A DNA stretch of 32,000 nucleotides from Halomicrobium mukohataei DSM 12286 (GCF_000023965.1 NC_013202.1:780001-812000); one strand, 5' to 3'. Positions 387-28,462 are shown, counted from the stretch's first letter. Notes: generated by a model from the sequence alone, not told the origin. Numbers and translations: made by a program.

Positions 387-402
387 ACTCTGATCGTTTG
401 TC

Positions 403-834: not shown

Positions 835-922
835 ACATTAGTTTTAATATTTATTTGATTATTAATAGTGCGATACAATCGGGTCGTATTCACCCGTTCG
901 AAATATACTCTCACACTGTAAA

Positions 923-1915: not shown

Positions 1916-2135
1916 TGCAAGCAGATTTTGGTTTAGAGCACAGTCAAAAAAAAACCTATTATCTCTATTTGATTTTCAACGAAGTGGTTTGTAGGCAATG
2001 TAGAGGTTGATATAAAAGATAACGAAGATCTGGAATTGAGACCGGGAGAGTCGGCAGAAATGGCAGAAAGTGTCTGAAACCGTTTTTGACGATATCGTTA
2101 ACCGAAGCGCCGGCCAGCGAAAGACGCCGTCCGAG

Positions 2136-2855
2136 TCAGTCCCGAAAGTTCTCGGGAACCTGGATGCTGTAGCGGCCGTCCTCTTGGAGTGCGACGATGT
2201 ACTCCTCGCGGTCGTACAGCTCCATCAGGTTCAGCTCGTACTGACCGGGTTCGAGCACTTTGATGCTCTCGAACTGGTCGTTGAGCTCCTCGCGGAGTTC
2301 TTCCAGCCCCGGTCGGTCCGCGCGGGGTTTCCGGTCGGCAGTTGGCTCGGCGTCGTCCTCGGCGGCGTCGGCCGAGACACGATCGGCCGGGGCTGACTCG
2401 GAGCGCTCCGTCTGGGCGGGGCGAGCCGACGCGGGATCGTCGGTCTGGACCGGCTGAAAGTGATGCTCACCGTCGTCTGACGGTTCCGCAGGGAGTTCGT
2501 CGACGGAGACCACGTCCGTGCGGGCGCTGGCCTGGGCGGTGTCTTCGGGACTGGGGCGAGGGTCCCCACGGTCGGGACCCGTCGTGTCGGGACCGTCGCT
2601 TCGGGTCGGCGACTCCCCGGCGGTGGCACTCCCCATCAGGTCCTTGACGGTCGCAGCGGTCTTGCCGACGGTCTGGGCGACCGACGATCCGCCGGACGGT
2701 TCCGGTGGATCTGGCGGTTCCGCCGCGGTGTCGACAGAGTCGGCACCGGCGGGTTTGAACTGGAACTTGTTGCCGCCACAGTCCGGACAGCCCGACAGCA
2801 TCTCCTTGGAGCCGTCCGAGAACGTGCGGTCGCAGTTCGTACACTGGTGTGGCAT
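2136..2855 (-). CDS. oapC: Origin-associated zinc-ribbon protein OapC
   Basis: N-terminus MPHQCTNCDRTF...SGCPDCGG carries CxxC...CxxC. It is followed by a long acidic, P/S/D-rich low-complexity region and a conserved C-terminal domain. Last gene of the three-gene cluster beside orc1. Its start overlaps the oapB stop (TAATG at 2853..2857). Confidence 0.8.
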   Translation of the reverse strand: MPHQCTNCDRTFSDGSKEMLSGCPDCGGNKFQFKPAGADSVDTAAEPPDPPEPSGGSSVAQTVGKTAATVKDLMGSATAGESPTRSDGPDTTGPDRGDPRPSPEDTAQASARTDVVSVDELPAEPSDDGEHHFQPVQTDDPASARPAQTERSESAPADRVSADAAEDDAEPTADRKPRADRPGLEELREELNDQFESIKVLEPGQYELNLMELYDREEYIVALQEDGRYSIQVPENFRD

Positions 2856-3235
2856 TATTTCCGGGTGACGAGGGCACTGATGACGTTTTCGTCCTTGTGA
2901 AGCGTCTCGATCTGGTTGGCCGGCCCGATCACGGTGAGTTTCTTCGTCGACTGGGTGCCCATGAGTCGGTCGAGGAAGCTCGTGTCGGACGTCTCCGAGC
3001 GCGGATAGGTCTCGATCTCGATGCCGTTGAACTCGTCGGGACTGATCTCGGTCATCGTCACTTCGATCAACCGCGATTCCTCGTCCGGGGACAGCCCCTC
3101 TTCGAGGACGACGATCTTGCCGTCGCGGACGCCGTCGAGGATGTTCCTGATCTTCTCCATGGAGGTCAGTCCGTCCATCTGTTCGCCGCTGATCAGGTCG
3201 ATCTGCACGCCGTCCTGTGGTTTTGCTTCAGCCAT
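2855..3235 (-). CDS. oapB: Origin-associated protein OapB (DUF2073-like)
   Basis: 126-aa acidic ORF lying 6 nt downstream of the GTPase gene. Position and size match the haloarchaeal oapABC cluster. Confidence 0.75.
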   Translation of the reverse strand: MAEAKPQDGVQIDLISGEQMDGLTSMEKIRNILDGVRDGKIVVLEEGLSPDEESRLIEVTMTEISPDEFNGIEIETYPRSETSDTSFLDRLMGTQSTKKLTVIGPANQIETLHKDENVISALVTRK

Positions 3236-3241
3236 CCACGA

Positions 3242-3883
3242 TCACCCGAAGTACTCCGCGATCTTGTCGTACACTTCGTCCATGTTGTCTCCTTCCAGGG
3301 CCGACAGCGGAATCGTCTCGTGTTGTGGGAACGCGTTGCGGATCCGCTGGACCGACGACTCTTCGAGGTCCGTCTTGTTCGCCAGAATCAGAACCGGCAG
3401 GTCCTGACTCTCGATGATCCCGATCAGCATGGTGTTGACCTGCGTGAACGGATCCGTCGAGGAGTCGAGCACGTAGATGACGCCGTCTACGTCCTCGCGG
3501 AGCCAGTGCATCGCCTCCGCGACCCCCTCGGTGGCCTCCCGCGAGCGACGCACGGCGTCGTCTTTCTCCATGTCGTGATCGAGGAACTCCTCGTAGTCGA
3601 CCTTCGTCGTCACGCCCGGCGTGTCGACGATGTCGATGTTGACCGTCGCGCCGTTGCGCTCGATCTCGATGTCCTCTTTCCGGCGCGCGCGCCTCGTTTC
3701 GTGTGGAATGTGACTCTCGGGGCCGACGGCGTCACCGGTCCAGTCACGGGCGATTCGGTTGGCCAGGGTCGTCTTCCCAGCGTTCGGTGGGCCGTAGATA
3801 CCGATACGCTTGGGGTTCTCTTCCGAGAACAGCGTCGATGCCGCGCGTGAAATACTGTCTTTGAGATCTGTGAGCAGTCCCAT
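3242..3883 (-). CDS. oapA: Origin-associated GTP-binding protein OapA
   Basis: GTPase motifs G1 GPPNAGKTT, G3 DTPG, G4 NKTD and G5 SAL. Transcribed divergently from orc1 across the origin. Confidence 0.9.
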   Translation of the reverse strand: MGLLTDLKDSISRAASTLFSEENPKRIGIYGPPNAGKTTLANRIARDWTGDAVGPESHIPHETRRARRKEDIEIERNGATVNIDIVDTPGVTTKVDYEEFLDHDMEKDDAVRRSREATEGVAEAMHWLREDVDGVIYVLDSSTDPFTQVNTMLIGIIESQDLPVLILANKTDLEESSVQRIRNAFPQHETIPLSALEGDNMDEVYDKIAEYFG

Positions 3884-4144
3884 CCTCGTTCCTCCCGCCC
3901 GAACGTCCGTATTCGGGGGCTTGAGCGTAGTAGAAAGGCGAATTCACTTAAGGCTACGTCAGACAACCATACCCGAATTGATAGTACGTCGAAAGATACA
4001 GCGCGGAAACCTGTCGAGAAAACGCGACGGGGACGAGATAGGAAAGTTGCGGGACGATAAGTCAGCCTGGCGGGACGGTAAGCCAACCCGAGGGAGGAGT
4101 GGAGAACGGTAACAATCTGGGAGGGACTTCGAGGGGGAGCACAA

Positions 4145-4175
4145 CACCCCCACCCCTTCGTTTCGACTGGAACGC
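4145..4175 (-). repeat. ORB element with G-string (leftward orientation)
   Basis: Plus strand reads cacccccaccccttcgtttcgactggaacgc. Its reverse complement gcgttccagtcgaaacgaaggggtgggggtg nearly matches 4431..4461. Confidence 0.85.
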
Positions 4176-4242
4176 CATAACCCCTCGTGGGGACCAGCGG
4201 GAGAGACGGGACTCGCGCGGGAAACCTACGGGTGGTTCGCGC

Positions 4243-4263
4243 GGGAGGTTTCGTCTGGAACGC
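4243..4263 (-). repeat. ORB-like element with degenerate G-string
   Basis: gggaggtttcgtctggaacgc shares the gtttcgNctggaacgc core with 4145..4175. Confidence 0.6.
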
Positions 4264-4409
4264 TACTAGAGAGACGTGAGAACGTGTAGAACAGCGTCTA
4301 GAATACTAGATACGACTAATTACTTGTCTCTGCTTCTAGTGCGGCTTTGGTTTTCACGTATCATACATAAGTCTTCCCTCATCTAGTGAGACCTCGACAG
4401 ACTGCCGTA
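4264..4409. other. Candidate duplex unwinding element (AT-rich core of the origin)
   Basis: The most AT-rich stretch of the intergenic region, rich in ctag/tctaga motifs, lying between oppositely oriented ORBs. Confidence 0.6.
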
Positions 4410-4430
4410 CCCCCCACCACCCTCTTCAAC

Positions 4431-4461
4431 GCGTTCCACCCGAAACGAAGGGGTGGGGGGG
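4431..4461 (+). repeat. ORB element with G-string (rightward orientation)
   Basis: gcgttccacccgaaacgaaggggtggggggg is the inverted partner of 4145..4175. A complementary C-string ccccccacc at 4410..4418 pairs with ggtgggggg at 4452..4460. Confidence 0.85.
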
Positions 4462-4913
4462 TTCGTGAACTCCCTTCCGAAATCCCACTCGAAGCTGTTC
4501 GTCTCCTGCTAGCACCTCTCTCACGTCGACTCTCGAATACACCCGACAGTACAGACCCCCGTCCGTTTCTGGTCCGCCCGCTCCCGCCCGCCGACCGTTC
4601 TCACTGTCGACACTCTCCTCACTGTCGAGTGTGAATTCGTCACGAACGTCTCCGTCTCGGGGGAATGCCTGCAGGACCGGACAGCTATCCACATCTCGAA
4701 GGTACGGTGAAGCTGCGGTCAGTAACGACAGAGACACGAATCGGGGACCCGACGTAGGGCTGGATCGACAGGAGTCTCCGTTCCGACCGAAATGTTTAAT
4801 ATCGAGTCACCCACGGGTTCTTGTGGTTCAACTGGACTCGCGCCGTTCGGTGAAATTCGCGTACAACGTCTTTCCGAGCGGTCTCAGTCGCGATTCCACA
4901 CTGCGCACCGGTC

Positions 4914-4937
4914 TTTCCACCTGAAACGAGGGGGTTG
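4914..4937 (+). repeat. ORB element just upstream of the orc1 start
   Basis: tttccacctgaaacgagggggttg has the same ttccacNNgaaacgaggggg core and ends 12 nt before the orc1 ATG. Confidence 0.7.
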
Positions 4938-4948
4938 TCACCACGACT

Positions 4949-6499
4949 ATGGACGAGACAGGAAACGACGCCGACCCGAACACGCCGGATCGAGAGTCCT
5001 CAGAGGAGACCGACGACGACCAGCCCGACCGCGACAACTTCGGGACGGATCTCGACGACGTGGTGCTGGACGACATCGACACGGGTGAGGACGGGGCCAC
5101 TGACGAGGCGTCCCGTGGCCTCTTCGACGACCTTCTCAGCGGCGAGCCGATCTTCGAGAACAAGGAAGTTCTCCGTCCCTCGTACACACCACACAAGCTC
5201 CCACACCGGGAAGAGCAGATCAACAACATCGCGACGATCCTCGTCTCCGCTCTCCGTGGAGACACGCCCTCGAACATCCTCATTTACGGGAAGACGGGGA
5301 CCGGAAAGACTGCCAGTGCCAAGTTCGTCAGCGAGGAACTGGAGACGACCTCACAGAAGTACGAAGTCCCCTGTATGGTCGAGTACATCAACTGCGAGGT
5401 GACCGACACGCAGTATCGCGTCCTCGCACAGCTCGCCAACAAGTTCATCGAGCAGAACCGGACGTACATCGGCGATCGCATCGAGGAACTCGATACGCTT
5501 CGCGAACGCGCGACCTCGAACCCGGACGGGGACCTACTCGCCGAGACCGACTTCGCGACCGTCGACGAGATCGACGCCGAAATCGAACGGCTCGAAGCCG
5601 ATCGCGCGGAGTTCGAGGAAGTGCCGATGACCGGGTGGCCGACCGATCGGGTGTACAGCTCGTTTTTCGACGCCGTCGACTACCACGAACGCGTCGTCGT
5701 CATCATGCTCGACGAAATCGACAAGCTCGTCGAGAAGTCGGGCGACGACACGCTGTACAACCTCTCGCGGATGAACTCCGAGCTCGAACGCTCGCGGGTG
5801 TCGATCATGGGCATCTCGAACGACCTGAAGTTCACCGACTTCCTCGATCCCCGCGTCAAGTCCAGCCTCGGCGAGGAAGAGATCGTCTTCCCGCCCTACG
5901 ACGCCACGCAGCTCCGGGATATCCTCGATCACCGCTCCGACGTGGCGTTCAAGTCCGACGCACTGACTGACGACGTGATTCCGCTCTGTGCCGCCTTCGC
6001 GGCCCAGGAACACGGCGACGCTCGGCGAGCGCTCGACCTGCTCCGGACGGCCGGCGAACTCGCGGAACGGGACCAGACCGACTGCGTCGAGGAAGACCAC
6101 GTCCGACAGGCCCAGGAGAAGATCGAACTCGACCGGGTCGTCGAGGTGGTGCGGACGCTGCCGACCCAGAGCAAGATCGTCCTCTTCGCGATCATCCTCC
6201 TGGAGAAAAACGGCGTCCACAACATCAACACCGGGGAAGTGTTCAACATCTACAAACGGCTCTGCGAGGAGATCGACGCCGACGTGTTGACTCAACGTCG
6301 CGTCACCGATCTCATCAGCGAACTCGACATGCTGGGGATCGTCAACGCCGTCGTCGTCTCGAAAGGGCGCTACGGCCGGACCAAAGAGATCAGCCTCTCG
6401 GTCCCCATCGACGAGACCGAGGCCGTCCTGCTGTCGGACTCCCGGCTCGGTGACATCGAGGACGTGCAACCGTTCGTTCAGGCCCGGTTCGACAACTGA
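4949..6499 (+). CDS. orc1: Orc1/Cdc6 replication initiator
   Basis: AAA+ Walker A YGKTGTGKT, Walker B VIMLDEID, sensor region, and a C-terminal winged-helix-like domain. The acidic N-terminal extension is typical of haloarchaea. Origin-adjacent. Confidence 0.95.
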   Translation: MDETGNDADPNTPDRESSEETDDDQPDRDNFGTDLDDVVLDDIDTGEDGATDEASRGLFDDLLSGEPIFENKEVLRPSYTPHKLPHREEQINNIATILVSALRGDTPSNILIYGKTGTGKTASAKFVSEELETTSQKYEVPCMVEYINCEVTDTQYRVLAQLANKFIEQNRTYIGDRIEELDTLRERATSNPDGDLLAETDFATVDEIDAEIERLEADRAEFEEVPMTGWPTDRVYSSFFDAVDYHERVVVIMLDEIDKLVEKSGDDTLYNLSRMNSELERSRVSIMGISNDLKFTDFLDPRVKSSLGEEEIVFPPYDATQLRDILDHRSDVAFKSDALTDDVIPLCAAFAAQEHGDARRALDLLRTAGELAERDQTDCVEEDHVRQAQEKIELDRVVEVVRTLPTQSKIVLFAIILLEKNGVHNINTGEVFNIYKRLCEEIDADVLTQRRVTDLISELDMLGIVNAVVVSKGRYGRTKEISLSVPIDETEAVLLSDSRLGDIEDVQPFVQARFDN

Positions 6500-6616
6500 C
6501 CGATCGGCAGGCTCGCTCGACTCGAAACGAAGGGATATCGTGCCGCTCGACACGCTCGTTCGCCCCTCTCTCTCTACAGGCGCGAGAACACCGCCGACTC
6601 GCTCGTCTCCCGACGA

Positions 6617-11198: not shown

Positions 11199-11831
11199 CT
11201 ACAGCACGCTCTCGCCTTCGAGCAGCTCGGACAGCTCGGCCATCGTCTCGACGATGGTGTCACACGAGGGGGCGACCGCGGGCTTCGGGTCGAAGCCGAC
11301 GGCCAGTCCCGCCACTTCCAGCATCGGGAGGTCGTTTGCTCCGTCGCCGACGGCGATCGTGTCGTCGCGGTCCTCGCCGACGACCGTCGTCACGATGTCT
11401 AAGGCGTCGTCCTTGGTGCCCTCGATGAGCGGCCCCTCGACCGCGCCGGTGAGCTTCCCGTCGGCGACGGGCAGGCGGTTGGCGACGATCGCGTCGACCT
11501 CTACCCCCTCGGCTTCGAGTGCAGCCTCGACGCCGCGTTCGAAGCCGCCGGTGAGGATACAGACGTAGACGCCCGCTTCGCGCAGGGCCTCGATCACGTC
11601 GGCCGCGCCGGGGCGAAGCTCGACCCGATCGAACGCCGCCTGTGCCGTCTCGTCGTCCATTCCCTCCAGCAGCGCACACCGCTGATAGAGGCTCTCCGCG
11701 TACTCGATCTCGTCGTTCATCGCCCGCTCGGTGATCTCGGCCATGTCCTCGGCCGTGTCGTTCTGATTGCCCAGCAGGACGGTCATCTCCGAATCTGAGA
11801 GGGTCCCGTCGAAGTCGAAGGCGACTAGCAT
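11199..11831 (-). CDS. serB: Phosphoserine phosphatase (HAD superfamily)
   Basis: HAD motif I FDFDGTL and motif IV GDGANDL. Start placed at ATG 11831, because the track's 11861 start is a TTG extension. Confidence 0.8.
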   Translation of the reverse strand: MLVAFDFDGTLSDSEMTVLLGNQNDTAEDMAEITERAMNDEIEYAESLYQRCALLEGMDDETAQAAFDRVELRPGAADVIEALREAGVYVCILTGGFERGVEAALEAEGVEVDAIVANRLPVADGKLTGAVEGPLIEGTKDDALDIVTTVVGEDRDDTIAVGDGANDLPMLEVAGLAVGFDPKPAVAPSCDTIVETMAELSELLEGESVL

Positions 11832-11915: not shown

Positions 11916-11948
11916 CTACGGCGTCGGCGGTGGCCCGTCGTAGCCGTC
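11916..11948. repeat. 33-bp direct repeat, copy 1 (att-like; copy of the XPD 3' end)
   Basis: ctacggcgtcggcggtggcccgtcgtagccgtc matches 13918..13950 at 32 of 33 positions. Confidence 0.9.
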
Positions 11949-12217
11949 TATATCGATCGTATCCCTTTGCTCAGGAACGGACGATTACTGGCCAGTTGGG
12001 ATAAATATATTTTCAGTACACAAATCTGATCCGTATAAACGCTTCAAGCTAGTCCCCTTCAAGAGATACAGAGTACCGTTATAATCTCATCTTTCGTCTA
12101 TCGAGTTGTACCTAATATATTTATAAAATAATATAGAATTAAATTATTTATTATAGTATAAAAATATAGTATAAATCAATAAATAAAACTAAGTGGCTTG
12201 CCAACTTCCGAGGAGAT

Positions 12218-12391
12218 ATGTCGCTGTCAAGAGATATCTTGCTATTCAGCATCGTCTTGATGATCTGGTCAATTCAAGCTGAAATGACACCAGGTGGTTC
12301 CACAATCATTGTGGTTGCATCAATGGTATTTGCCTTGGCTGGACTTGCAGGTAGCATCTATCGTTCAGCGGATGAGATACTACTAGATTGA
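12218..12391 (+). CDS. Small two-TM membrane protein (57 aa)
   Basis: Below the ORF track size cutoff. Hand translation: MSLSRDILLFSIVLMIWSIQAEMTPGGSTIIVVASMVFALAGLAGSIYRSADEILLD. Preceded by ggagat. Confidence 0.4.
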   Translation: MSLSRDILLFSIVLMIWSIQAEMTPGGSTIIVVASMVFALAGLAGSIYRSADEILLD

Positions 12392-12611
12392 GGAAATCGG
12401 GAACTCAGAGTACGTTAATCAGAGAAATTATGCAATTTGTGGGCTCAAAAACAGTGGTTTTCCACCTCAGACTGCACAACAGCCTATCACGACTGGCTAA
12501 ATAAAAATATAACAAACATATATGGTGACCAAAACTATACAGTGAAACCACTGTCTATGCAAGATCAGACTTGACCCGTGAAATAAAAACAAATGTCAAA
12601 TATATATTGGC

Positions 12612-13562
12612 CTATCTTTTCACTCCGTCAATCCTAAGCGTTTCAACAGTAGCGTCAAAGTTCATCTTTGATCCTGTAGTCCACAACCCGCAACTCAGGC
12701 TGCCGCCAAATGCTACACCGATCCGATATTCGTTTCCCTCTCTAAACCCTTCCCAAGTCGCTGATTCTGTACTCCTTGCTGTGCCACTATCGTAATTCCT
12801 GCCAGTTTCACTTGCCGTAGTGATGTCGAAGTTGCTCTCACTACTGAAATTTCTCGTAATTGTTGTCTCCTTTGATAAATTCTGAACAAAATACCCCACC
12901 GAAATCCCAGTGTGGTTCTCATAGCCATCGACTTTATCAGACATCCCGAGCAAGAAATTTGCAGTTCCTAGTGCTATCGGGATATAGGCTGGTGGCACTG
13001 ACTCGGGCGTAACTTTTGATGTGACCTGCTTTTTCACATCTTTCAAACGCTTCTTATTAGCACGACTTTTTCTCCCTGTTTTGTTTGATCGCTCGCTAGT
13101 CTGTGGGTCAACGTATTCAGTGTAGCCTGGATTAAGCTCATATTCGAGTTCTACGTCGATGAAGATGTCTAATTTGTCTGACTTGGCCTCAAACGGAGTC
13201 CCCATCACGACACCGAAAGTGTCCTTGGGACCAGCGGCTGTCCGTTGGGTCTGTCCACTGACATTACCAGTTGGACCAGATTCAACATCCAGATTATCAA
13301 AACCCTGATTTGTCACCCGGTCGGCCTCAAAACTGTCGGATTCTGTCTTTTTCAGCGTATCTCCAGGCTCAATTGTCGGAGGGTTCTTCTGTGAATTTGG
13401 AGGGAGACCAGATAGGATCACTCCATCACTAGTCAGCGTATTGGCCTCATCGTCATCCTCTGCTGTATCTCCCTGAACGCTGCCCGCTACTCCAATTGTC
13501 CCGACCGTGCTAGTTGCTACAAGTTGGGCAAACTTCCGCCTGCCAATTTTTCGTGACATCAT
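12612..13562 (-). CDS. Tat-signal secreted protein of unknown function
   Basis: Start placed at MMSRKIGRRKFAQLVATSTVGTIGVAG (twin-arginine signal). The mature part is S/T/N/G-rich and looks beta-rich. Low-GC codon usage. Confidence 0.7.
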   Translation of the reverse strand: MMSRKIGRRKFAQLVATSTVGTIGVAGSVQGDTAEDDDEANTLTSDGVILSGLPPNSQKNPPTIEPGDTLKKTESDSFEADRVTNQGFDNLDVESGPTGNVSGQTQRTAAGPKDTFGVVMGTPFEAKSDKLDIFIDVELEYELNPGYTEYVDPQTSERSNKTGRKSRANKKRLKDVKKQVTSKVTPESVPPAYIPIALGTANFLLGMSDKVDGYENHTGISVGYFVQNLSKETTITRNFSSESNFDITTASETGRNYDSGTARSTESATWEGFREGNEYRIGVAFGGSLSCGLWTTGSKMNFDATVETLRIDGVKR

Positions 13563-13917
13563 AGACGCATTAACCAAGCATACATTTCTTCTTTTTGTCT
13601 GGAGCAATTTAGACATTACTGAGAACTAACTTTAATGAGAAAGAATAAGAGTACCATGTCGGCAGTGCTAGAAATGAATGACTTCATTGTCTATATTTGG
13701 ATATGTGCGTGGCTTTTCGGATATTCATATCTATGAGTTGAAATCCAACCGTATACAGACAATAAAATAATATCACTTTGTCTATCTCATATCGTTAAAA
13801 AACCACAACATAATATAAAACACATAAATTTATAGGTGGGTACTGTTGTGATATACATAATATTGGTGGCGATTGAATAATGTCACAAGCCAGAACAGCA
13901 CTTTGCATCCGTCGATC

Positions 13918-13950
13918 CTACGGCGTCGGCGGCGGCCCGTCGTAGCCGTC
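13918..13950. repeat. 33-bp direct repeat, copy 2 (functional 3' end of the XPD gene)
   Basis: ctacggcgtcggcggcggcccgtcgtagccgtc encodes DGYDGPPPTP-stop on the minus strand. Confidence 0.9.
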
Positions 13951-16164: not shown

Positions 16165-16286
16165 AAGGGTTCGGCCCTAGTAACGGATCGTGCTTCGTTC
16201 GACGCAGTGTGCTCGCTGGCGAAGGCCGTGACAGATTAGCATTTGGTGATTGAAAGTATTTACCGCTCGCCCATCTTCGATAGTCG

Positions 16287-16682
16287 CTACAATACAGCAG
16301 TGTCTCTGGATGATCGTTTGATCGTCCACAGAGTATAGCCAAATCCCGCAACAACGACGGAAAGGAGCAGGTAGGTGAACTGTCCACTCATCATTGCACC
16401 GGTAATGAGTGAGCCGAGTACCAACAAAACAACAGTATGCTCATAGTTACTGCTCCGAAGCGAAACCGACATTGAGAGGATCCAGGCTGCAAGTACGAAG
16501 CCTAGTATGAGGCTTCCCTGTATGATTAGAAGGTATCCAAAGACGATTGCAGCTATTCCTGCTCCAATCACGTCTAGCGGTTCTATTTTCCGAATATCCA
16601 TATGGTTTATATGACCGCTCACGTACATCAATCCTGCGGCAATAGACAAAGTGCTGTTCAGATAGGAGGCCGAGCAATCCAC
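16287..16682 (-). CDS. Membrane protein of unknown function, lower GC
   Basis: Hydrophobic ORF with 3-4 TM segments. The true start may be an internal ATG at 16628 or 16601. Confidence 0.5.
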   Translation of the reverse strand: MDCSASYLNSTLSIAAGLMYVSGHINHMDIRKIEPLDVIGAGIAAIVFGYLLIIQGSLILGFVLAAWILSMSVSLRSSNYEHTVVLLVLGSLITGAMMSGQFTYLLLSVVVAGFGYTLWTIKRSSRDTAVL

Positions 16683-16739
16683 TTTCGAGGCCTTCTCACC
16701 GAGGAATGAAGCCGCGCCTCCAAACAGTGCACTCTTCCC

Positions 16740-19405: not shown

Positions 19406-20503
19406 ATGGACCCACGTGTCCGCGAACACGCAGAGATCGTCGCAGACCACTCCGTCGAGCTGCAGGCCGGTGACGACGTCGTCATCGACGCCCATCCCGA
19501 CGCGGCGGACCTCGTGACGGCGCTCCACGAGGTGATCGCCGACCGCGGCGCGAACCCACTCACCGTCCAGGACCGCCTCGGTGCTCGCTTCCGACGCGCG
19601 TATCTGCGCAACCACGACGGCGACTTCGAGACGCCGGCACACGTCCAGGCGCTGTACGACGAGATGGACGTGTACATCGCCATCCGCGGCGGCGGCAACG
19701 CCACCGAGACCAGCGACGTCGACCCCGAGACGACCGCGGCCTACCAGCAGGCCCAGCAACCGCTGCTCGACGAACGCCTCTCGAAGCGGTGGTGTCTCAC
19801 CCAGTACCCCGCCCAGACCAACGCCCAGCTGGCCCAGCTCAGCACGGAGGGCTACGAGAACTTCGTCTGGGACGCGGTCAACAAGGACTGGGACGCCGTC
19901 CGCGAACACCAGTCCCAGATGGTCGACATCCTCGACCCCGCCGACGAGGTCCGGATCGTCTCGGGCGACACCACCGACGTGACGATGAGCGTCGCCGGCA
20001 ACCCGACGCTCAACGACTACGGCGAGCGCAACCTCCCCGGCGGCGAGGTCTTTACCGCCCCCGTCGCCGACAGCGTCGAGGGCGAGGTCCTGTTCGACAA
20101 GCCCCTGTACCATCAGGGCCGAGAAGTGACGGACGCATACCTCACGTTCGAGGACGGCGAGGTCGTCGACCACAGCGCGTCGAAAAACGAGGACGTGCTG
20201 ACGGAAGTGCTCGACACCGACGCGGGCGCGCGCCGACTCGGCGAACTCGGGATCGGGATGAACCGCGACATCGACCAGTTCACCTACAACATGCTGTTCG
20301 ACGAGAAGATGGGCGACACCGTCCACATGGCCGTCGGCCGCGCGTACGACGACACCGTCGGCGAAGACAACGAGCAAAACGACAGCGCCGTCCACGTCGA
20401 CATGATCGTGGACATGAGCGAGGACTCGTACATCGAGGTGGACGGCGAGCGCGTACAGGAGGACGGGACGTTCGTGTTCGAGGACAACGAAATCGAGCAG
20501 TAG
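19406..20503 (+). CDS. Aminopeptidase, M29 (AmpS/PepS) family
   Basis: NLPGGEVFTAP and HMAVGRAY motifs, about 365 aa. Start placed at the ATG (MDPRVREH). Confidence 0.85.
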   Translation: MDPRVREHAEIVADHSVELQAGDDVVIDAHPDAADLVTALHEVIADRGANPLTVQDRLGARFRRAYLRNHDGDFETPAHVQALYDEMDVYIAIRGGGNATETSDVDPETTAAYQQAQQPLLDERLSKRWCLTQYPAQTNAQLAQLSTEGYENFVWDAVNKDWDAVREHQSQMVDILDPADEVRIVSGDTTDVTMSVAGNPTLNDYGERNLPGGEVFTAPVADSVEGEVLFDKPLYHQGREVTDAYLTFEDGEVVDHSASKNEDVLTEVLDTDAGARRLGELGIGMNRDIDQFTYNMLFDEKMGDTVHMAVGRAYDDTVGEDNEQNDSAVHVDMIVDMSEDSYIEVDGERVQEDGTFVFEDNEIEQ

Positions 20504-20586
20504 CGAACCGGAACGCTGCACGGCTGGTGCAGCGAAGCGGGGGAGACGACTCGTCTGGCGTTTACAGACCGAGACGCCGACGGCAC

Positions 20587-20624
20587 GTGACCCGGGTCAC
20601 CCGCTCGCGCTGGTGAGATCTCAC
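20587..20624. promoter_or_regulatory. Two perfect palindromes sharing GTGA/TCAC arms (possible operator or recombination site)
   Basis: gtgacccgggtcac at 20587..20600 and gtgagatctcac at 20613..20624, about 80-110 nt upstream of the nuclease-like gene. Confidence 0.3.
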
Positions 20625-20700
20625 TCGGAGGGTGTGTTCTGGTTCGAACATTGTTTCTGGAATACGAACACTCATATTGTTTTGACGAACTGGAAATAGC

Positions 20701-21723
20701 GTGTACCAGTTTACCCCTGACGAAATCGACAGCAGTCGAGCCAATCACCAGGCCGTTATTCAGGATGCAGAGAACATCGATGCGAAGCGGATTGGGAACC
20801 TCGGGGAGATCGCGTTCGAGCAGTTCTGCCGAGAGTATCTGCCAGCAGAGATGTGGGAGTGGCAGAACGAGGATGCGATCAGACGATGTAACCCGGAGAG
20901 TTTCGCGGGACACGACTTCGAGGTGTTCGGCTACGAAGTCGACGTGAAGACCTCTCGCGACGTGTCAGCGTTTCTCCCGGAGAATCTGGTCGAGATGGAT
21001 TCAGCCGACGACATCATCGTGATGGTCTGGCACCGGGACAACGAAGACAGCCTGATTCTGCTCGGCTGGGAGCACGTCGCCACGCTCGAGTCGAAAGTCG
21101 AGACCGAGGAACAGTTCTCGGGGGACACTCCGGCGAAGCTCGACCACCTCGCCGCTCGGCCGATGAACGACCTCCAGGACCTCGGACCGAACACGGCGAA
21201 CATGAACCAGAAACCGGAGAACCCGTTTCAGCCGGGTGATCGCGTCGAGAAGCGAGACGACGAAGATGCCTCGGTGGGGGTCGTCGTCGAGGTTCTGCCA
21301 CCGGAGACGCAGATCGAACTATTCGGGCAGGAAATGGACGGCGAAGCCGTCCGGGTAGCGTTCCCCAGCTCGCTCGACGAGGGACCAGGCGACTGGCGAG
21401 ACATCGAGCCAGCACTGTTGTCCTCGTACTGCGACGATCAGGACGTTAGCCTCTACACGTACAAGCACGAGAACCTGAAGTTCGCGGAGAATCCGTACAC
21501 AGTCGGTGATTACGTTGTCAAGTCCTCACACGACGACCCGAACCTCGCCGTGGTCGTCGGGATCGACGGCGACGAGGTGAGTGTCGTCTACGAAGGTCCG
21601 ACCGGAGAGGAAGTTGCACCGGCGAACCTCTCTGATCACTGTGACGACGAAGACCTGAAACGGTATCAATACTCACCTGACGAACTGGAGTTCACCACGC
21701 TCGAGGAGCACGGCGAGGATTAG
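20701..21723 (+). CDS. PD-(D/E)xK nuclease-fold-like protein with two C-terminal SH3/Tudor-like repeats
   Basis: The N-terminal domain has GNLGEIAFE ... HDFEVFGYEVDVKTS (an E ... D ... D/ExK arrangement). The C-terminal half is an internal duplication (ENPFQPGDRVEKRDDEDASVGVVVEV... versus ENPYTVGDYVVKSSHDDPNLAVVVGI...). GTG start. GC is lower than in core genes. Confidence 0.6.
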   Translation: MYQFTPDEIDSSRANHQAVIQDAENIDAKRIGNLGEIAFEQFCREYLPAEMWEWQNEDAIRRCNPESFAGHDFEVFGYEVDVKTSRDVSAFLPENLVEMDSADDIIVMVWHRDNEDSLILLGWEHVATLESKVETEEQFSGDTPAKLDHLAARPMNDLQDLGPNTANMNQKPENPFQPGDRVEKRDDEDASVGVVVEVLPPETQIELFGQEMDGEAVRVAFPSSLDEGPGDWRDIEPALLSSYCDDQDVSLYTYKHENLKFAENPYTVGDYVVKSSHDDPNLAVVVGIDGDEVSVVYEGPTGEEVAPANLSDHCDDEDLKRYQYSPDELEFTTLEEHGED

Positions 21724-21884
21724 ACCTCGATTGTCCGATAATTCTCTTCGACCTGTTCCACTGGTTCTTCGATTTTCCGACCACACGCCACGCACTGGAG
21801 TCCGATCCGACTGCCGGGGAGCGTAACCGCCTCGATCGTCGCATCACACCCAGCGGGGCAACATAGCCATTCGTTCAGGGACAT
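21720..21884 (-). CDS. Zinc-ribbon microprotein (54 aa)
   Basis: Below the track cutoff. Hand translation: MSLNEWLCCPAGCDATIEAVTLPGSRIGLQCVACGRKIEEPVEQVEENYRTIEV, with CCPAGC and CVAC pairs. Its stop codon overlaps the stop of 20701..21723 (convergent). Confidence 0.5.
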   Translation of the reverse strand: MSLNEWLCCPAGCDATIEAVTLPGSRIGLQCVACGRKIEEPVEQVEENYRTIEV

Positions 21885-21930
21885 CGGATATGGATCAAGG
21901 ATATGTGTGAGTAAAAGTGAGGGCCAACGC

Positions 21931-21951
21931 CGGAGTGAAAGTGAAACTGAA
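21931..21951 (+). repeat. Left arm of a 21-bp imperfect inverted repeat bracketing 21931..26286
   Basis: cggagtgaaagtgaaactgaa versus the reverse complement of 26266..26286, cggagtgaaagtgtaaccgaa. 19 of 21 positions match, and the first 13 are perfect. Confidence 0.45.
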
Positions 21952-22140
21952 ATTCACCAAACAGCGGCTGCGAAATATGTTTAGAATAATATTTACCCAA
22001 AATATTTTTTAATCTATATATAGGTTAATTATCTTTCAATTTTTAAATTTTCATAACAGAATCTGTAATCGGGTATAGTGGTTTTTATTACCGGGTGCTT
22101 CAGCGAAAGGCTGAAATTCTTAGAAAGACTTCCTTTATAT

Positions 22141-22458
22141 ATGAATGAAGCTATCCAAGAATATATATTTGTTTTTGCTATCATGATATTAATGTATGTA
22201 CTCGTAAGGTACCAGTATCTAACGCCACGAATGATTGGATTTGACACAATTATCAGGAACACTCCTGATGAGAAAGCAGCATATATCATTTCAAATGTAT
22301 ACCTTCGGATTGGTGTCTTGTGCTTATTGGGTATCTTGATTGAGACCTTATTTCAACCACCAAGCTACTCACGAAATATTTTAATAGGAATTGCAATTCT
22401 TGACCAGCTAATAGTGATACTGAAGTTGTATTTTGAACACACATATAATGTGGGGTGA
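22141..22458 (+). CDS. Membrane protein (105 aa) in extremely AT-rich DNA
   Basis: MNEAIQEYIFVFAIMILMYVLV... has three hydrophobic segments. An overlapping minus-strand ORF (22029..22289) is an alternative, so the strand call is uncertain in AT-rich sequence. Confidence 0.4.
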   Translation: MNEAIQEYIFVFAIMILMYVLVRYQYLTPRMIGFDTIIRNTPDEKAAYIISNVYLRIGVLCLLGILIETLFQPPSYSRNILIGIAILDQLIVILKLYFEHTYNVG

Positions 22459-22648
22459 CTGTAATTTATAGTGGGAACAATCCATTTTGAAAAGTATAAT
22501 AGCTATCTGGTGTTTCGCACCCCGAAAAGGGTCATAGGACATGCAGTAGGGGGTTAGTGAGTTGAAGAACCGATTATCTCCAACCTTAGTTACAATCATA
22601 TACTGTCACCGCATATTAATATAAATAAGTTTTATATACTATACTCAC

Positions 22649-23131
22649 TTATTCTTCTTTTATGATATTATGGCTCTCAAATTCTGACTTTAGTCCATCA
22701 ATATCAATTTGTTCACGGAACTTCTGATTCCCCAGCCTTATGGGGCGTGTAACTGACTCACCATCTTTTTGATAGACAATTAGTATTATTCGTCCCTGGA
22801 ATGAATCCAACCCTTTGATCTCTTTTATATCTGCTATTTTTATTTTATCTGCTTTATTCATATATCCAAAATAACTAATTGCTTTATTAAAAATATAAGA
22901 TAAAAATATACTAAATACTAGGATGCTGACCACAACCATCCCGATAGTTGATGGGTCAACACCCAATATTAATCCGAATATCGACAAGCAAACAGCAAAT
23001 ATTATCAAAATTTTCACCTTTATATCGGTCAGGACTACTTCGTATAAAGTTCTCCATATTGATTCACTAATATAAATATACTCGCTATCGAACTTAATAG
23101 ATCCTCCCAAAATCCTATGTTCTTCAGCCAT
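22649..23131 (-). CDS. Two-TM membrane protein with a K/I-rich C-terminal soluble domain (possibly bPH/YdbT-like)
   Basis: 160-aa ORF. A TM hairpin (ILIIFAVCLSIFGLILG, MVVVSILVFSIFLSYIF) is followed by a ~70-aa domain. The lysine- and isoleucine-rich composition is unlike typical haloarchaeal proteins. Confidence 0.55.
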   Translation of the reverse strand: MAEEHRILGGSIKFDSEYIYISESIWRTLYEVVLTDIKVKILIIFAVCLSIFGLILGVDPSTIGMVVVSILVFSIFLSYIFNKAISYFGYMNKADKIKIADIKEIKGLDSFQGRIILIVYQKDGESVTRPIRLGNQKFREQIDIDGLKSEFESHNIIKEE

Positions 23132-23197
23132 GATATTTATTTAATAGTTGCTATTTAACTCCTCAACGAATAAGGCTGACGATCCAAGATAGGGGAT

Positions 23198-23698
23198 TTA
23201 AGCGAAGGCGGCTCCCCCTGTAGCCGTGGCAAGAATTCCAATGCCAGCCAGATACACTGATATGGCTGCAAGAGCTGCGATTACTACAACGGCGACAACA
23301 GCTGCCAGAACTGCAACTACGATATCACCCAAGGTAATATCATACCTATCTGCTAGCTCTCGCGCGAATTCCCACGCAAGGTCCTCAGCATCCTTTCTGG
23401 TGATACTATTTTCTCCCACACAAGTTTCAACACAGATTGGTGGCGAGGTGTCCTCAGATCCGATATATGCGCATATGTCTCCAGACTCATCAACCCCCAT
23501 CCCAACGTAGAAACCAACGTCGAACTTAACAAACCCTGAATCCAGAGAGAGATCTCCGGACACCGAGTAGATCTGGGGAGTTCGCCCATAGGCACATTCC
23601 TTACGGCCAAGACTCACCGTATCCTGCATGGTTGAGCAGAACTCTCCACCTCCCACGACATCGGGAATAGCCTCACAATAGTCAATATTGACGCCCAT
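23198..23698 (-). CDS. Cys-containing protein with a long A/V/I/G-rich C-terminal hydrophobic tail
   Basis: 166 aa with six Cys in the first ~95 residues and the C-terminal tail IVVAVLAAVVAVVVIAALAAISVYLAGIGILATATGGAAFA. No signal peptide. Its ATG overlaps the stop of the upstream gene (TAATG). Confidence 0.6.
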   Translation of the reverse strand: MGVNIDYCEAIPDVVGGGEFCSTMQDTVSLGRKECAYGRTPQIYSVSGDLSLDSGFVKFDVGFYVGMGVDESGDICAYIGSEDTSPPICVETCVGENSITRKDAEDLAWEFARELADRYDITLGDIVVAVLAAVVAVVVIAALAAISVYLAGIGILATATGGAAFA

Positions 23699-24180
23699 TA
23701 TTCTTCACCCTCCATCTGAACATCACTCGGAACTGGTCTGCTCTCAATCACAGTTGGTTCAAATGCCTTGTTTGATTGCGGAATTTTCAGTTTATAGACA
23801 GCACCGTCTCTCCAGAACTTCAGCCGGTTTCCTTTCATCCACTCAAGGTTTAGTGCCCCCGTCCGACTTTCCGAGGTAACCTGATAGATCTCATCTGGGG
23901 TTTGCTCTGCTTTTGTTACACCAGTCGCAATGAACAGTTCAACTGTCCCAGTGAAAACGGACGTTGAAAATGCCATACGATCATGATTCGGCTGCTTTGA
24001 TCGTGTGGTAGAACCCAGCAATTCAATCGCGAGGTCCTTCACGGATTCATCGCTGTACTTGCTGTCTTCTATTGAGGGGTATTTTTCTTTTGCACTTACG
24101 ACTAGCGGTGAGGAAGCAATGACTGCAGTACTTCCAACTCCTGCCAGTACATCTCTCCTACTGAGGTTGTTATTTCCCAC
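23698..24180 (-). CDS. Tat-signal secreted protein of unknown function
   Basis: MGNNNLSRRDVLAGVGSTAVIASSPLVVSA has a twin-arginine motif plus a hydrophobic region. 160 aa. Confidence 0.65.
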   Translation of the reverse strand: MGNNNLSRRDVLAGVGSTAVIASSPLVVSAKEKYPSIEDSKYSDESVKDLAIELLGSTTRSKQPNHDRMAFSTSVFTGTVELFIATGVTKAEQTPDEIYQVTSESRTGALNLEWMKGNRLKFWRDGAVYKLKIPQSNKAFEPTVIESRPVPSDVQMEGEE

Positions 24181-24264
24181 ATAGAGCGCTTAGTTCTAAT
24201 CTCAGTTAAAGATTATTTAGGCACTCTAACTATGTTACAATTGCTACTATTGTCTTTCGGGGAC

Positions 24265-25233
24265 CTAATTTTGGAGTTTAGAGAGTATATCCGACCAGGA
24301 GAGATCTTGTGAGAACAGATCCGATTCGAGGTTCCACGACCATGGTGCGGCGTCGTTGGGATCTGGTTCGTGGCCAGTCGGCTCGAGATCCTCAATCGAC
24401 CCACCGAAGAGTTGGTCGGTCGGATGGTCACCGTCAGCAGGCCAGCGATCGTAGAACTCGACGACTTTCTTGTCGGTCTTGTAGTACGCCAGCGTCGCCA
24501 TGCGCTTCAGCTCCGGGTGAGCGTCTTTCCCGGTGTGAATCACGTTGCCGCAGGCGTCGACGCCGATCTTGGCGAATCGCTTGGCGAGTGGTGTCCACTG
24601 GGTCGCGACCTCTCGACGATAGGTTCGAGCGTCGAAGTGCGTCGACGACTCGTCGATGAAGACGAACTTCGGAACGTCGCGGTGTTCCAGAAGGGTGACG
24701 GCGAGGTCGTGCGCGGAGGTCACGACTTCGTCGGTCAGGGGCCAGCTCCGGACGTTCGAGATGATCATGTACTCGTCGAGCTGGGTTTTTCGTAATTCAG
24801 CGACTAGGGACATGGTATTGGTCTTGCCTGTGTTGGGATTGCCCGCGCCGAGGATGAACGCCGGTGCCTCGTTGTTCTCGATCTCGTCAAGGAGCATCAT
24901 TGGGAGCCGAAGCGTAGAGCTATCGAGATCCTGCTCGGTGACGCCGACCAAGTGCGACATGACCGAGCCGTTTCCGTTGGTGACGGCTTTGGTCGTCCGA
25001 TCGGCGAGGTACTTCTCCAGCAGCGTCTCGCCGAGTTTCGACTCTTCGAACGATGTCGTGTCGAGATCGCCACGAGCGACAGCGTCTTCGACGAAGGACA
25101 GCGCTGCTCGATCCTGCGCGTCGTCGACGATTCCGGTGTGGGGATAGTATTGCTCATGTGTTTCGAGACCGCCACGAATCTGCTCGCGGAGCTTCGCCGC
25201 AGTGAGCAGGTGCTCGTCGACGCCATCAGTCAC
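24265..25233 (-). CDS. P-loop NTPase of unknown family
   Basis: Walker A GAGNPNTGKT and Walker B-like KFVFIDESS, with a ~140-aa N-terminal extension. Start placed at GTG 25233 (GTGACTGA overlap with the upstream stop). The track's TTG start at 25275 is possible. Confidence 0.75.
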   Translation of the reverse strand: MTDGVDEHLLTAAKLREQIRGGLETHEQYYPHTGIVDDAQDRAALSFVEDAVARGDLDTTSFEESKLGETLLEKYLADRTTKAVTNGNGSVMSHLVGVTEQDLDSSTLRLPMMLLDEIENNEAPAFILGAGNPNTGKTNTMSLVAELRKTQLDEYMIISNVRSWPLTDEVVTSAHDLAVTLLEHRDVPKFVFIDESSTHFDARTYRREVATQWTPLAKRFAKIGVDACGNVIHTGKDAHPELKRMATLAYYKTDKKVVEFYDRWPADGDHPTDQLFGGSIEDLEPTGHEPDPNDAAPWSWNLESDLFSQDLSWSDILSKLQN

Positions 25234-26053
25234 CGGCGGGCGCACCCCCGTTCCCAGCTCCGGCGAGATCAGCAAGGTCTTGGTCGAAGTCGATACGAAC
25301 GCCGGGGGTTTCGGACTCCTGCGAGTTCTCTTCAGTCTCGCGAATCTTCCGCTCGAGGCCGAACTGCTCGATCGCGTTGTCGATCTCGTCGGTCAACCCC
25401 CCTCCTTCGTCTGGAAGGGTCCCGCGTTCGAACGTCGAGACGATCCGAAGCACGGCCTTCCGGGTGGCGTTACGGATGATCGTGAACGCCTGGGCTTCGA
25501 TCGCGAAACCACGCTTGGCGTCTTCCTCGAGCTGGCCGCGACACTCCTCGACAGCTTGGAGTGTTTTCATCAGCTCGCGGTCGGACATCGTACCGCGCCA
25601 AGTGCCTTCGACAGTCTGTTCGTCGAGATTGACCTGCTTCCCGAAGGCGAGATCGGGACTCACTCGATCGAGTTGCCCTTCGGTGATCGTCCACTCGCTG
25701 AATCGCTGGCCGGGGATGCGGAAGATGCCGCCCTTCGTGTAGCGAGCGTCGACGTCGACGAGCCAGACGTACGTCGGTTCCCACAGCAGTGACCGGACCT
25801 TCTTGCCGGTCGGTCGACCGACGATCGGGATGATGATGATAGCTGTGAGGCCGATGATCTGGAGGTTGCGCGGGGGTTCGAAGCCGATGACCGACGCCAG
25901 AACGAACGGCCCGAGGCCGAGACCCGACGCCAGGAGCGTCAGGTTCTCGGTCAGCCAGCGGAACGCGCGGAACCAGCGAGATCGACTCGGGTCCTGCTCT
26001 GGTTCGTTAGTCTGTTCCGTCCGGGCTCGGGATCGCTCATGCGACGCGCTCAC
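25226..26053 (-). CDS. Two-TM membrane protein with an acidic, helix-rich C-terminal domain
   Basis: 275 aa. Basic N-terminus, TM segments LTLLASGLGLGPFVLASVIGF and LQIIGLTAIIIIPIVG, then a ~180-aa soluble region. GTG start. Overlaps both neighbouring genes. Confidence 0.7.
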   Translation of the reverse strand: MSASHERSRARTEQTNEPEQDPSRSRWFRAFRWLTENLTLLASGLGLGPFVLASVIGFEPPRNLQIIGLTAIIIIPIVGRPTGKKVRSLLWEPTYVWLVDVDARYTKGGIFRIPGQRFSEWTITEGQLDRVSPDLAFGKQVNLDEQTVEGTWRGTMSDRELMKTLQAVEECRGQLEEDAKRGFAIEAQAFTIIRNATRKAVLRIVSTFERGTLPDEGGGLTDEIDNAIEQFGLERKIRETEENSQESETPGVRIDFDQDLADLAGAGNGGAPAGD

Positions 26054-26150
26054 CTCGTTCGGTCGTGCCGACCTTGGCCGCTGCTTCGTACAGGACTGCG
26101 ACGACGAGCAGCGCCACGAGTACTCGGAGAGCGTTCTTGTGTCCGATCAT
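26037..26150 (-). CDS. Single-TM microprotein (37 aa), first gene of the NTPase cassette
   Basis: Internal ATG of track ORF 26037..26261: MIGHKNALRVLVALLVVAVLYEAAAKVGTTERGERVA. Its stop lies 17 nt inside the next ORF. Confidence 0.4.
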   Translation of the reverse strand: MIGHKNALRVLVALLVVAVLYEAAAKVGTTERGERVA

Positions 26151-26265
26151 GAGTTTACTGGACTGGGACTCCCCAGGAGACGACCGTCGCGATAAACGCC
26201 AGCTGCATTCCGAGCGGCGTGTCGGCAGCCACGCGTCAGACGATCGTTCGGTCCGGCCCACGTCC

Positions 26266-26286
26266 TTCGGTTACACTTTCACTCCG
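26266..26286 (-). repeat. Right arm of the 21-bp imperfect inverted repeat
   Basis: Plus strand reads ttcggttacactttcactccg, the partner of 21931..21951. Confidence 0.45.
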
Positions 26287-26438
26287 CTTTCATCGCTTTT
26301 AACCCATCTCGTGTCCTTGGATCACTCGCGCACCCTCCATCGGTGGTGGGCACCATCCATTTCGTTCCCCTTTCCCGAACGTCGCCCAGCGACAGCTGTC
26401 GCGCCAACAGTAACAAGCACCGGGGTGTAACTGCCGGT

Positions 26439-28317: not shown

Positions 28318-28345
28318 TCACCCGCCCGCCGACGTTTCGATGCGT

Positions 28346-28427
28346 GCCAGGATGGCCGAACGGTAAGGCGCACGCCTGGAAAGCGTGTTCCCTTTCGGGA
28401 TTCTGGGTTCAAATCCCAGTCCTGGCG
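28346..28427 (+). tRNA. tRNA-Ser (anticodon GGA)
   Basis: Hand-folded cloverleaf. Acceptor gccagga/tcctggc, D arm gcc-gaacggtaa-ggc, anticodon arm cacgc-ctGGAaa-gcgtg, long variable arm tccc-tttc-ggga, T arm ctggg-ttcaaat-cccag, discriminator g. No encoded CCA. Confidence 0.85.
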
Positions 28428-28462
28428 TGATTCTGCCGCGAGCAAACTCGCGAGCGGCGACT
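28402..28462 (+). repeat. Direct repeat copy 1: tRNA-Ser T-arm and acceptor plus 35 nt downstream
   Basis: tctgggttcaaatcccagtcctggcgtgattctgccgcgagcaaactcgcgagcggCgact matches 28548..28608 at 60 of 61 positions. Confidence 0.9.

Follow-up and report, generated by a model that had tools for sequence, protein, structure and literature searches.

What lies between the aminopeptidase gene ampS and ilvA in the chromosome of Halomicrobium mukohataei DSM 12286, and where did it come from? In the stretch of 32,000 nucleotides analysed here (NC_013202.1, 780001-812000; called the window, with positions counted from its first letter), the two genes enclose a 5.7-kb compositional island which has 31–63% GC compared to 65–70% in the flanks. 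We consider it very probable that this island is the non-autonomous remnant of an integrated alphapleolipovirus-type provirus (HRPV-1/HHPV-1/Halfgib1 lineage) in the chromosome of the H. mukohataei group.

Nine island proteins were searched against PHROGs, Pfam, NCBIfam and PADLOC-DB v2; none matched Pfam, NCBIfam or PADLOC, and three matched virus families in PHROGs very strongly. One of these is a 322-aa NTPase (24265–25233, minus strand; phrog_1979, 4e-102), which is a full-length VP8 with intact Walker A (GAGNPNTGKT) and Walker B (VFIDES) motifs, the longest open reading frame (ORF) reaching 25275. It shows 52–56% aa identity to VP8 of HRPV-1, HHPV-1/2 and Humcor2 (tblastn against GenBank phages, 21 pleolipovirus records). 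The second is a full-length 275-aa homologue of the pleolipovirus core protein ORF7 (DUF8125/DUF8126; 25226–26053, minus strand; phrog_5952, 1e-107), with 41–52% identity to ORF7 of HRPV-1/2/6 and HHPV-1/2 (tblastn, 12 records) and 82–92% to close relatives. Both proteins align end to end with their homologues. The third, the 340-aa DUF7961 protein p340 (20701–21723, plus strand; phrog_18072, 2e-212), is encoded by a conserved accessory gene of alphapleolipovirus-type proviruses and is 72.5% identical to HfxHg1_080 of provirus Halfgib1; the exact product is also encoded in CP045142.1 (GCA_009217585.1), and its accessions come from H. mukohataei DSM 12286 (ACV46960), JP60 and Halomicrobium sp. 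ZPS1. The sequence-only reading of this DNA, which had proposed a search with virus profiles, had recognised no known system in the block. This was wrong, given the three family matches and the collinearity described below, and its suggestion of a mobile-element island was right.

Complete relatives, labelled Lnnn as retrieved comparison loci, provide the gene order. L084 (IMG/VR UViG_3300026961_000001) is an 11.1-kb circular virus whose ends overlap by 124 bp; it has 59% GC and carries Rep, ORF2, VP3, VP4, ORF5, ORF6, ORF7, VP8 and an integrase; window 24283–26107, which covers the end of ORF6, ORF7 and VP8, is 82–89% identical to it at the nucleotide level, and its VP8 protein is 84% identical to that of the island. 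Proviruses in H. katesii (L086), Har. marismortui (L088), metagenome contigs (L089/L090) and L101 share the order integrase (minus), small genes, DUF7961 (plus), variable gene(s), VP8 (minus), ORF7, ORF6, ORF5, VP4, VP3, ORF2 and, after further genes, Rep. In L089/L090 this reads int-71aa-DUF7961-54aa-174aa-VP8-ORF7-ORF6-ORF5-VP4-VP3-ORF2-...-Rep. The host genes upstream of the L089 provirus (helicase, cation efflux, Metallophos, HTH_20, DUF7859 and ampS, the last with 94% aa identity) match those in the window, and the provirus has the same orientation relative to them.

A further comparison is with L101, a complete sibling provirus that the same genome carries at a distance of about 122 kb (CP045142, ~1.557–1.578 Mb); it probably corresponds to "region 2" in Sencilo et al. 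2012 (PMC3384331). Island and sibling match in 20654–21948 (93% nt), 24283–26107 (78.6% nt) and 26099–26217 (87% nt), and the L101 copies of p340 and ORF7 are 97% and 92% identical to those of the island at the aa level. A first backbone segment (20654–21951, no strand assigned) comprises DUF7961 with its upstream region and a convergent zinc-ribbon gene with its own, and corresponds to L101 9954–11248 and, at 84% nt identity, to L089 9978–11300 (p340 90% aa). The zinc-ribbon protein (54 aa, CCPAGC...CVAC; 21720–21884, minus strand) is a backbone product as well: L089 has a 54-aa counterpart in the corresponding place (91% aa identity), and an ORF in L054 that lies about 370 nt from a Halfgib1-type integrase gene is 58% identical. 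DUF7961, zinc ribbon, ORF7 and VP8 are all full length and free of frameshifts.

The ICTV family definition uses a five-gene cluster, HRPV-1 genes 3, 4 and 8 with ORFs 6 and 7 (PMC12642806). Two of these five core genes, ORF7 and VP8, are intact in the island, and VP3, VP4 and ORF6 persist only as fragments; the cluster order is kept on the minus strand, as VP3 tail, VP4 start/ORF6 end, ORF7 and VP8. The VP3 remnant (26155–26232, minus strand) consists of the last ~25 codons and the stop, its frame ending at 26155 with the translation DTPLGMQLAFIATVVSWGVPVQ. By tblastn it is 90% identical to residues 113–132 of L088 VP3, 72–76% to VP3 of L089 and L086, and 60% to that of Halfgib1. Homology ends at about 26232, the truncation point on the ilvA side, and therefore ORF2, Rep and the distal attachment (att) site have been lost.

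The VP4 start codon follows 4 nt after the VP3 stop, as in the viruses, and opens a chimeric ORF of 37 codons (26037–26150, minus strand) in which ~17 VP4 signal-peptide codons are joined to the last ~24 codons of ORF6; ORF7 comes next after the ORF6 tail with the usual overlap. A three-way alignment shows that VP4 gives way to ORF6 where the two are briefly alike (TCGTCGTCG versus TCGTGGTCG), and both stretches encode hydrophobic segments. Window 26099–26217 corresponds to L101 16550–16668, and the homology running up to window 26107 corresponds to L101 14058, so that about 2.2 kb are missing on L084 coordinates and 2.5 kb on those of L101. This internal deletion was microhomology-mediated. 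Towards ampS, the homology shared with L089 and L101 starts at 20651–20654, downstream of the place which the integrase gene and the 71-aa gene occupy in those two proviruses, and hence both genes have been lost.

A tyrosine integrase, a rolling-circle Rep, and whole VP3 and VP4 genes are absent. A tblastn search of all 32 kb with the Halfgib1, HRPV-1, L086, L088 and L089 proteins revealed no spike, full VP3, Rep or integrase, and Rep of Halfgib1, HRPV-1 and L089 gave no significant match in the window. With proteins of six related viruses and proviruses, no homologue of an integrase, Rep or transposase was detected in the window, nor did the gene calls (window ~10.7–31.7 kb) contain any of these, so that the earlier statement that integrase and transposase are missing is borne out.

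These junctions can be accommodated in a simple scheme. From the ampS side, the intact ancestor would have carried an att site, integrase (minus), small regulators, DUF7961 (plus), zinc ribbon (minus), a cargo slot, VP8 (minus), ORF7, ORF6, ORF5, VP4, VP3, ORF2, Rep and a second att site, and would have entered by means of its integrase. Three losses inactivated it: one took the integrase with the adjacent small gene (left of 20654), the microhomology deletion took ~2.2–2.5 kb between VP4 codon ~17 and the last ~24 ORF6 codons, and another took everything beyond the last ~25 VP3 codons, with ORF2, Rep and the distal att site. The resulting remnant is no longer able to excise, to replicate or to build virions.

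The composition of the island changes in layers. The flanking genes are rich in GC (ampS 66% GC, with 92% at third codon positions; ilvA 68%, with 91%), p340 and the zinc-ribbon gene have 59% and 56% GC, an AT-rich layer has 40% overall (33% in 21952–23197, 47.5% in 23198–24270), and the NTPase cassette returns to 59% (VP8) and 63% (ORF7). The composition profile thus confirms the three layers and the break against the flanks that the sequence-only reading had described, and its hand counts for three 60-nt lines from 22021 agree exactly with the recomputed 25.0%, 36.7% and 23.3%. The ORF positions and gross features that it listed (Tat motif, Cys-rich tail-anchored protein, zinc ribbon, P-loop) were found as claimed. 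Its limits, 20504–26340, enclose a real island, but the provirus-derived DNA is narrower and extends from 20654 to 26232. A nucleotide search of the whole island against phage genomes gave no match.

Between ampS and the provirus-derived DNA lies a spacer of 150 bp (20504–20653, no strand) that is rich in short palindromes and also occurs in H. katesii. It has no significant match to the int/att regions of L084, L089 and L101, nor to the DNA downstream of ampS in L089 and L005. The H. katesii chromosome is 95–98% identical at the nucleotide level up to window 20673, which includes ~20 bp of provirus-derived sequence (20654–20673). Right past the end of synteny (L004 11269–16600) it has a 5-kb pile of fragments from at least four DDE transposase families (DDE_Tnp_1, IS240, IS1595, DDE_5), together with unrelated genes. 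This suggests that the integrase-side deletion is older than the H. katesii split and that insertion sequence (IS) activity removed the rest in that species. The block is specific to the strain or species and is missing at this position in the sister species H. katesii, in line with the accessory nature it had been given. ampS and ilvA are adjacent in none of 80 related genomes, a neighbourhood that the sequence-only reading had proposed to look for, and only Halostagnicola has ilvA nearby, 4 kb off; as ampS forms the end of a conserved syntenic block, there is no "empty site" for comparison. Two other pleolipovirus relics exist elsewhere in H. katesii (L086, L102), and remnants of this kind are common in Halomicrobium.

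Behind ampS, L089 has HTH_10, P450, DUF7577, a 66-aa gene and an M29 paralogue before the provirus begins; it is plausible that the locus in the window passed through an L089-like arrangement and then suffered a deletion of ~5.9 kb. Integrative pleolipoviruses have their attP in the interval beyond the integrase gene, according to a figure legend (PMC7911831, Fig. 9). The last ampS codons and the stop (20488–20505, plus strand) form an 18-mer that is identical to a sequence near attP in L084, L104 and L105; in L084 (10083–10100) it lies 126 nt beyond the integrase gene, in an orientation that fits the remnant. The L084-type virus is found in metagenomes both free (L104) and integrated at the 3' end of tRNA-Ala(GGC) (L105). 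The 3' end of ampS was nevertheless rejected as the att site, as the crossover in L105 occurred at tRNA-Ala(GGC), 44 nt from the 18-mer (2167–2184). The 18-mer occurs in a single copy at ampS, has two matches in IMG/VR, one of which is in an unrelated contig, and its identity may be due to chance or may be the trace of an old exchange. A second exact 18-mer is shared in opposite orientation by window 21929–21946, upstream of the zinc-ribbon gene, and L084 1774–1791, upstream of ORF2, and may represent a shared regulatory motif.

The end of ampS shows peculiarities in other genomes also. In eight genomes from several genera (L009, L010, L011, L021, L024, L045, L046, L081), its last 36–70 bp are duplicated 150–220 bp downstream. 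A conserved palindromic element, CTTTTTCATCGANGTTTTT...GAAAAAGNTCG, lies between the two copies in the five genomes that were examined, and it also occurs behind the M29 paralogue beside the L089 provirus (L089 8380–8470). These arrangements look like att-type scars or a miniature element. Pleolipovirus-type fragments (VP8, Rep) or Halfgib1-type integrase genes were seen within 10 kb downstream of ampS in 7 of the 80 genomes (L015, L017, L028, L049, L054, L071 and L076, at distances of 1.4–8 kb), with no tRNA gene found there. The region downstream of ampS may be a recurrent insertion region.

Some observations weigh against a provirus remnant with the history proposed here. Across the island ends there are no direct repeats beyond 8–19-mers at chance level, and att sites were not found; because the 150-bp spacer beside ampS matches nothing, we can only infer the integration site and mechanism. 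The AT-rich layer likewise has neither flanking repeats nor terminal inverted repeats, again apart from chance-level 8–19-mers, which leaves room for more than one mode of arrival. Finally, the retained backbone genes have ratios of non-synonymous to synonymous substitution (dN/dS) of 0.04–0.2 compared to their relatives. This fits a recent decay but also a function that has been kept, and such low values do not distinguish between the two because the divergence of the hosts is tiny (ampS dS 0.016 versus H. katesii).

The AT-rich block (2.33 kb, 21952–24282, no strand) is bounded by the points where homology to the relatives stops, at 21948–21951 (L089/L101) and at 24283 (L084/L101); the second point falls within VP8, 18 nt from its 3' end. 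As the relatives carry unrelated genes between DUF7961 or its zinc ribbon and VP8 (a 174-aa gene in L089, Trypsin_2 in L101, AAA_16 in L086, a 132-aa gene in L088), the interval from the zinc ribbon to VP8 is a variable cargo slot. The block has no nucleotide match in phages or plasmids. Its four genes, all near-orphans, are a multi-pass membrane ORF of 105 aa (m126; 22141–22458, plus strand, longest form from 22078), which is the weakest gene call of the block and has no family match; m160 (22649–23131, minus strand), 160 aa long and with two hydrophobic helices in its centre, also without a family match, restricted to Halomicrobium and with self-matches only among 5.8 billion clusters; and the pair tat160 and cys166.

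tat160 (160 aa; 23698–24180, minus strand) has a twin-arginine signal (SRRDVLAGVGS) and its stop overlaps by 1 nt the start of the second gene of the pair, cys166 (166 aa, six Cys, C-terminal hydrophobic tail; 23198–23698, minus strand). A word-indexed search with tat160 returned only itself, and cys166 has eight distant homologues among 1.84 billion representatives, in which the cysteines were recognised by eye, without alignment. tat160 is 48% identical to a 174-aa Tat protein in L093, whose gene overlaps a cys166 homologue by 1 nt as well. The homologues thus show that tat160 and cys166 form a conserved pair with translational coupling. Beside the H. katesii remnant L102 there are genes for 381 and 120 aa, which were considered as relatives of the pair and are not homologous to it.

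A fused paralogue, P0129 (371 aa; its N-terminal half 26% identical to tat160), is encoded elsewhere in the same genome and is followed by a 120-aa membrane protein with four helices. Both lie in a 2.36-kb AT-rich islet (L096 9560–12052; CP045142.1 ~936.9–939.4 kb), which is of the size class of the AT block. Direct repeats of 133 bp, 96% identical to each other, enclose this islet and begin within the 3' end of a RidA-like gene. The window itself contains another AT-rich insertion of 2.0 kb (11949–13917, 35–50% GC) between 33-bp direct repeats (11916–11948 and 13918–13950). It carries a single 334-aa ORF (12612–13616, minus strand) that has no Pfam match, and H. katesii keeps the empty site with one copy of the repeat. 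At least two of the three islets carry a cassette of a Tat-signal protein and a Cys-rich tail-anchored partner, sometimes fused, which could act, for example, as a secreted toxin with its immunity protein or as a surface or exclusion factor.

Most likely, then, the AT block came in as a small AT-rich islet of the kind seen elsewhere in this genome, and we lean towards an islet that landed in the provirus or was exchanged into it. That the block was the virus's own cargo, gained before integration, is rather doubtful, but it has to be retained as a serious alternative since the block has no flanking repeats of its own, nor a target duplication. It also sits exactly in the slot that holds a different cargo in each related provirus, and tat160, cys166 and m160 are on the strand of ORF7 and VP8, directly downstream of VP8. 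On the other hand, its 33–47% GC lies well under the 59% of L084, which is complete, and the islets of 2.0–2.4 kb with their 33-bp and 133-bp repeats lie outside proviruses, one of them carrying the fused tat160-cys166 paralogue. The homologues with a readable neighbourhood (L096, L099) are not in pleolipoviruses either; L093–L095 are contigs of less than 2 kb, too short to reveal more of their surroundings. That such integrase-less, very AT-rich islets (2.0–2.4 kb), the block among them, constitute an undescribed Halomicrobium class that inserts next to the 3' ends of genes is a speculation which we regard as unlikely.

A second alternative accepts the viral origin and holds that the remnant is still in use, either as a domesticated module or as a satellite-like defective element that works together with the sibling provirus 122 kb away; ORF7, VP8, DUF7961 and the zinc ribbon might then serve in superinfection exclusion, vesicle formation or interference. 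The four full-length genes with conserved motifs and low dN/dS would agree with this. So would the DUF7961 segment, which is much closer to the sibling (93% nt, 97% aa) than ORF7-VP8 (78.6% nt) and suggests gene conversion or separate histories, and the sharing of 20654–20673 by H. katesii, by which the integrase-side deletion may predate the split. However, with an ampS dS of 0.016, intact ORFs are expected by chance alone, and pairwise dN/dS mostly mirrors evolution in functional viruses. Without Rep, an origin and att there is no route of mobilisation, and H. katesii lost the remaining element to IS activity with no obvious replacement. We therefore consider a continuing role improbable and favour the decaying provirus.

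p340 deserves a separate comment. More than 290 homologues exist across Halobacteria, with 64–90% identity among the 120 listed, and in every context that was opened (L086, L088, L089/L090, L101, Halfgib1) the gene is inside a pleolipovirus-type provirus; a pattern scan of IMG/VR revealed no close relatives. In the related proviruses (L086, L088, L089, L101) DUF7961 has 78–97% aa identity with dN/dS of 0.04–0.08, and the virion-module genes are less conserved (VP8 44–84%, ORF7 72–92% aa). As the most conserved gene of these proviruses it may be a key lysogeny or replication factor.

The sequence-only reading had assigned a nuclease fold to this protein, which could not be confirmed by sequence or structure searches. 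Taking as the mark of a PD-(D/E)xK nuclease an alpha-beta-beta-beta-alpha-beta core with catalytic D...(D/E)xK residues, the N-terminal domain has D72 and D81-V-K83 invariant in 31 homologues and a predicted strand order that is compatible with such a core. Yet there is no sequence match in Pfam, NCBIfam or the PDB, and a model of the N-domain only, which is poor (pLDDT 58), gave no significant structural match in a fold search. For the full-length model (pLDDT 77), Foldseek finds structural matches only in the C-terminal half, to a tandem of two Tudor/Agenet/KOW-like barrels (probability 0.99, E about 1e-3, low TM-scores).

The remaining idea, also voiced in the sequence-only reading, that the membrane proteins make up one or more anti-virus defence systems together with the NTPase and the nuclease-like protein, could appeal to the invariant D...D-x-K of p340, to the presence of an NTPase and to the fact that prophage relics often carry exclusion genes, but it is extremely unlikely, as PADLOC gave no match at E<=0.1 for the nine proteins, the NTPase and its neighbour are the pleolipovirus core genes VP8 and ORF7, complete proviruses have p340 and the zinc ribbon in their backbone, and the nuclease fold lacks confirmation.

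Other parts of the window may be variable too. Most 400-bp windows in 1–6500 have 42–62% GC (with a dip to 42% at 801–1200 and one window at 70%) compared to 63–69% in 6.0–12.0 kb, and parts of it are syntenic with just three distant loci (L021, L027, L082), so that this may be another variable region. A segment of ~560 bp with lower GC (50–57%; 16176–16738) is missing at the same position in H. katesii and in L005, a metagenome-assembled genome. The last 27 nt of tRNA-Ser(GGA) (28345–28428) and at least 24 nt beyond it are repeated from 28548, which resembles the att scar of an integrative element. The "tRNA-???" with a four-base anticodon that ARAGORN called at 11210–11310, in a high-GC coding region, is probably a false positive.

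For annotation, this means that ten "hypothetical" genes of genomes in the H. mukohataei group can be described as a pleolipovirus relic with foreign AT-rich cargo, not as a defence island. The locus is also an example of proviral decay resolved to the nucleotide, with both ends truncated and a microhomology deletion that joins two stretches coding for hydrophobic segments, and it reveals the interval between DUF7961 and VP8 as a slot for the exchange of cargo. Two side leads may merit the attention of specialists: AT-rich islets with flanking repeats that carry the tat160-cys166 cassette, and DUF7961, whose conservation is unusually strong.

Relics of this sort are common in haloarchaea, and for this virus group both proviral regions and "proviral remnants" have already been described in Hmc. 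mukohataei and other haloarchaea (PMC3384331). This particular locus is not named in the literature searched, where the class itself is well described (PMC3384331, PMC7911831, PMC10599561). With the haloarchaeal alphapleolipovirus-type proviruses and remnants (Hmc. mukohataei regions 1 and 2, Hfx. volcanii Halfvol3, Hfx. gibbonsii Halfgib1 and plasmid pHK2; Sencilo et al. 2012, PMC3384331; Dyall-Smith et al. 2021, PMC7911831) the island shares ORF7 and VP8 as homologues, the arrangement in order and orientation from DUF7961 through cargo slot, VP8, ORF7, ORF6 and VP4 to VP3, a GC content below that of the host, and the host genus. It differs from them in that only two of the five core genes are intact, in being devoid of Rep, integrase and att, and in carrying the 2.33-kb block of 33–47% GC with its near-orphan genes; in Halfgib1, moreover, the p340 homologue is on the strand of VP8 and downstream of it. 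The complete relatives L084/L104/L105 and L089/L090 are unlike the island in their completeness, the L084 type integrates at tRNA-Ala(GGC), and the L089 provirus follows a second M29 peptidase gene, 4.3 kb past ampS. HRPV-1, HHPV-1, HHPV-2 and Humcor2 (Alphapleolipovirus and relatives) are complete replicons of 7–12 kb that make virions, whereas the island is a chromosomal fragment, which nevertheless has kept a recognisable VP3 C-terminus and their ORF6/ORF7/VP8 overlap pattern.

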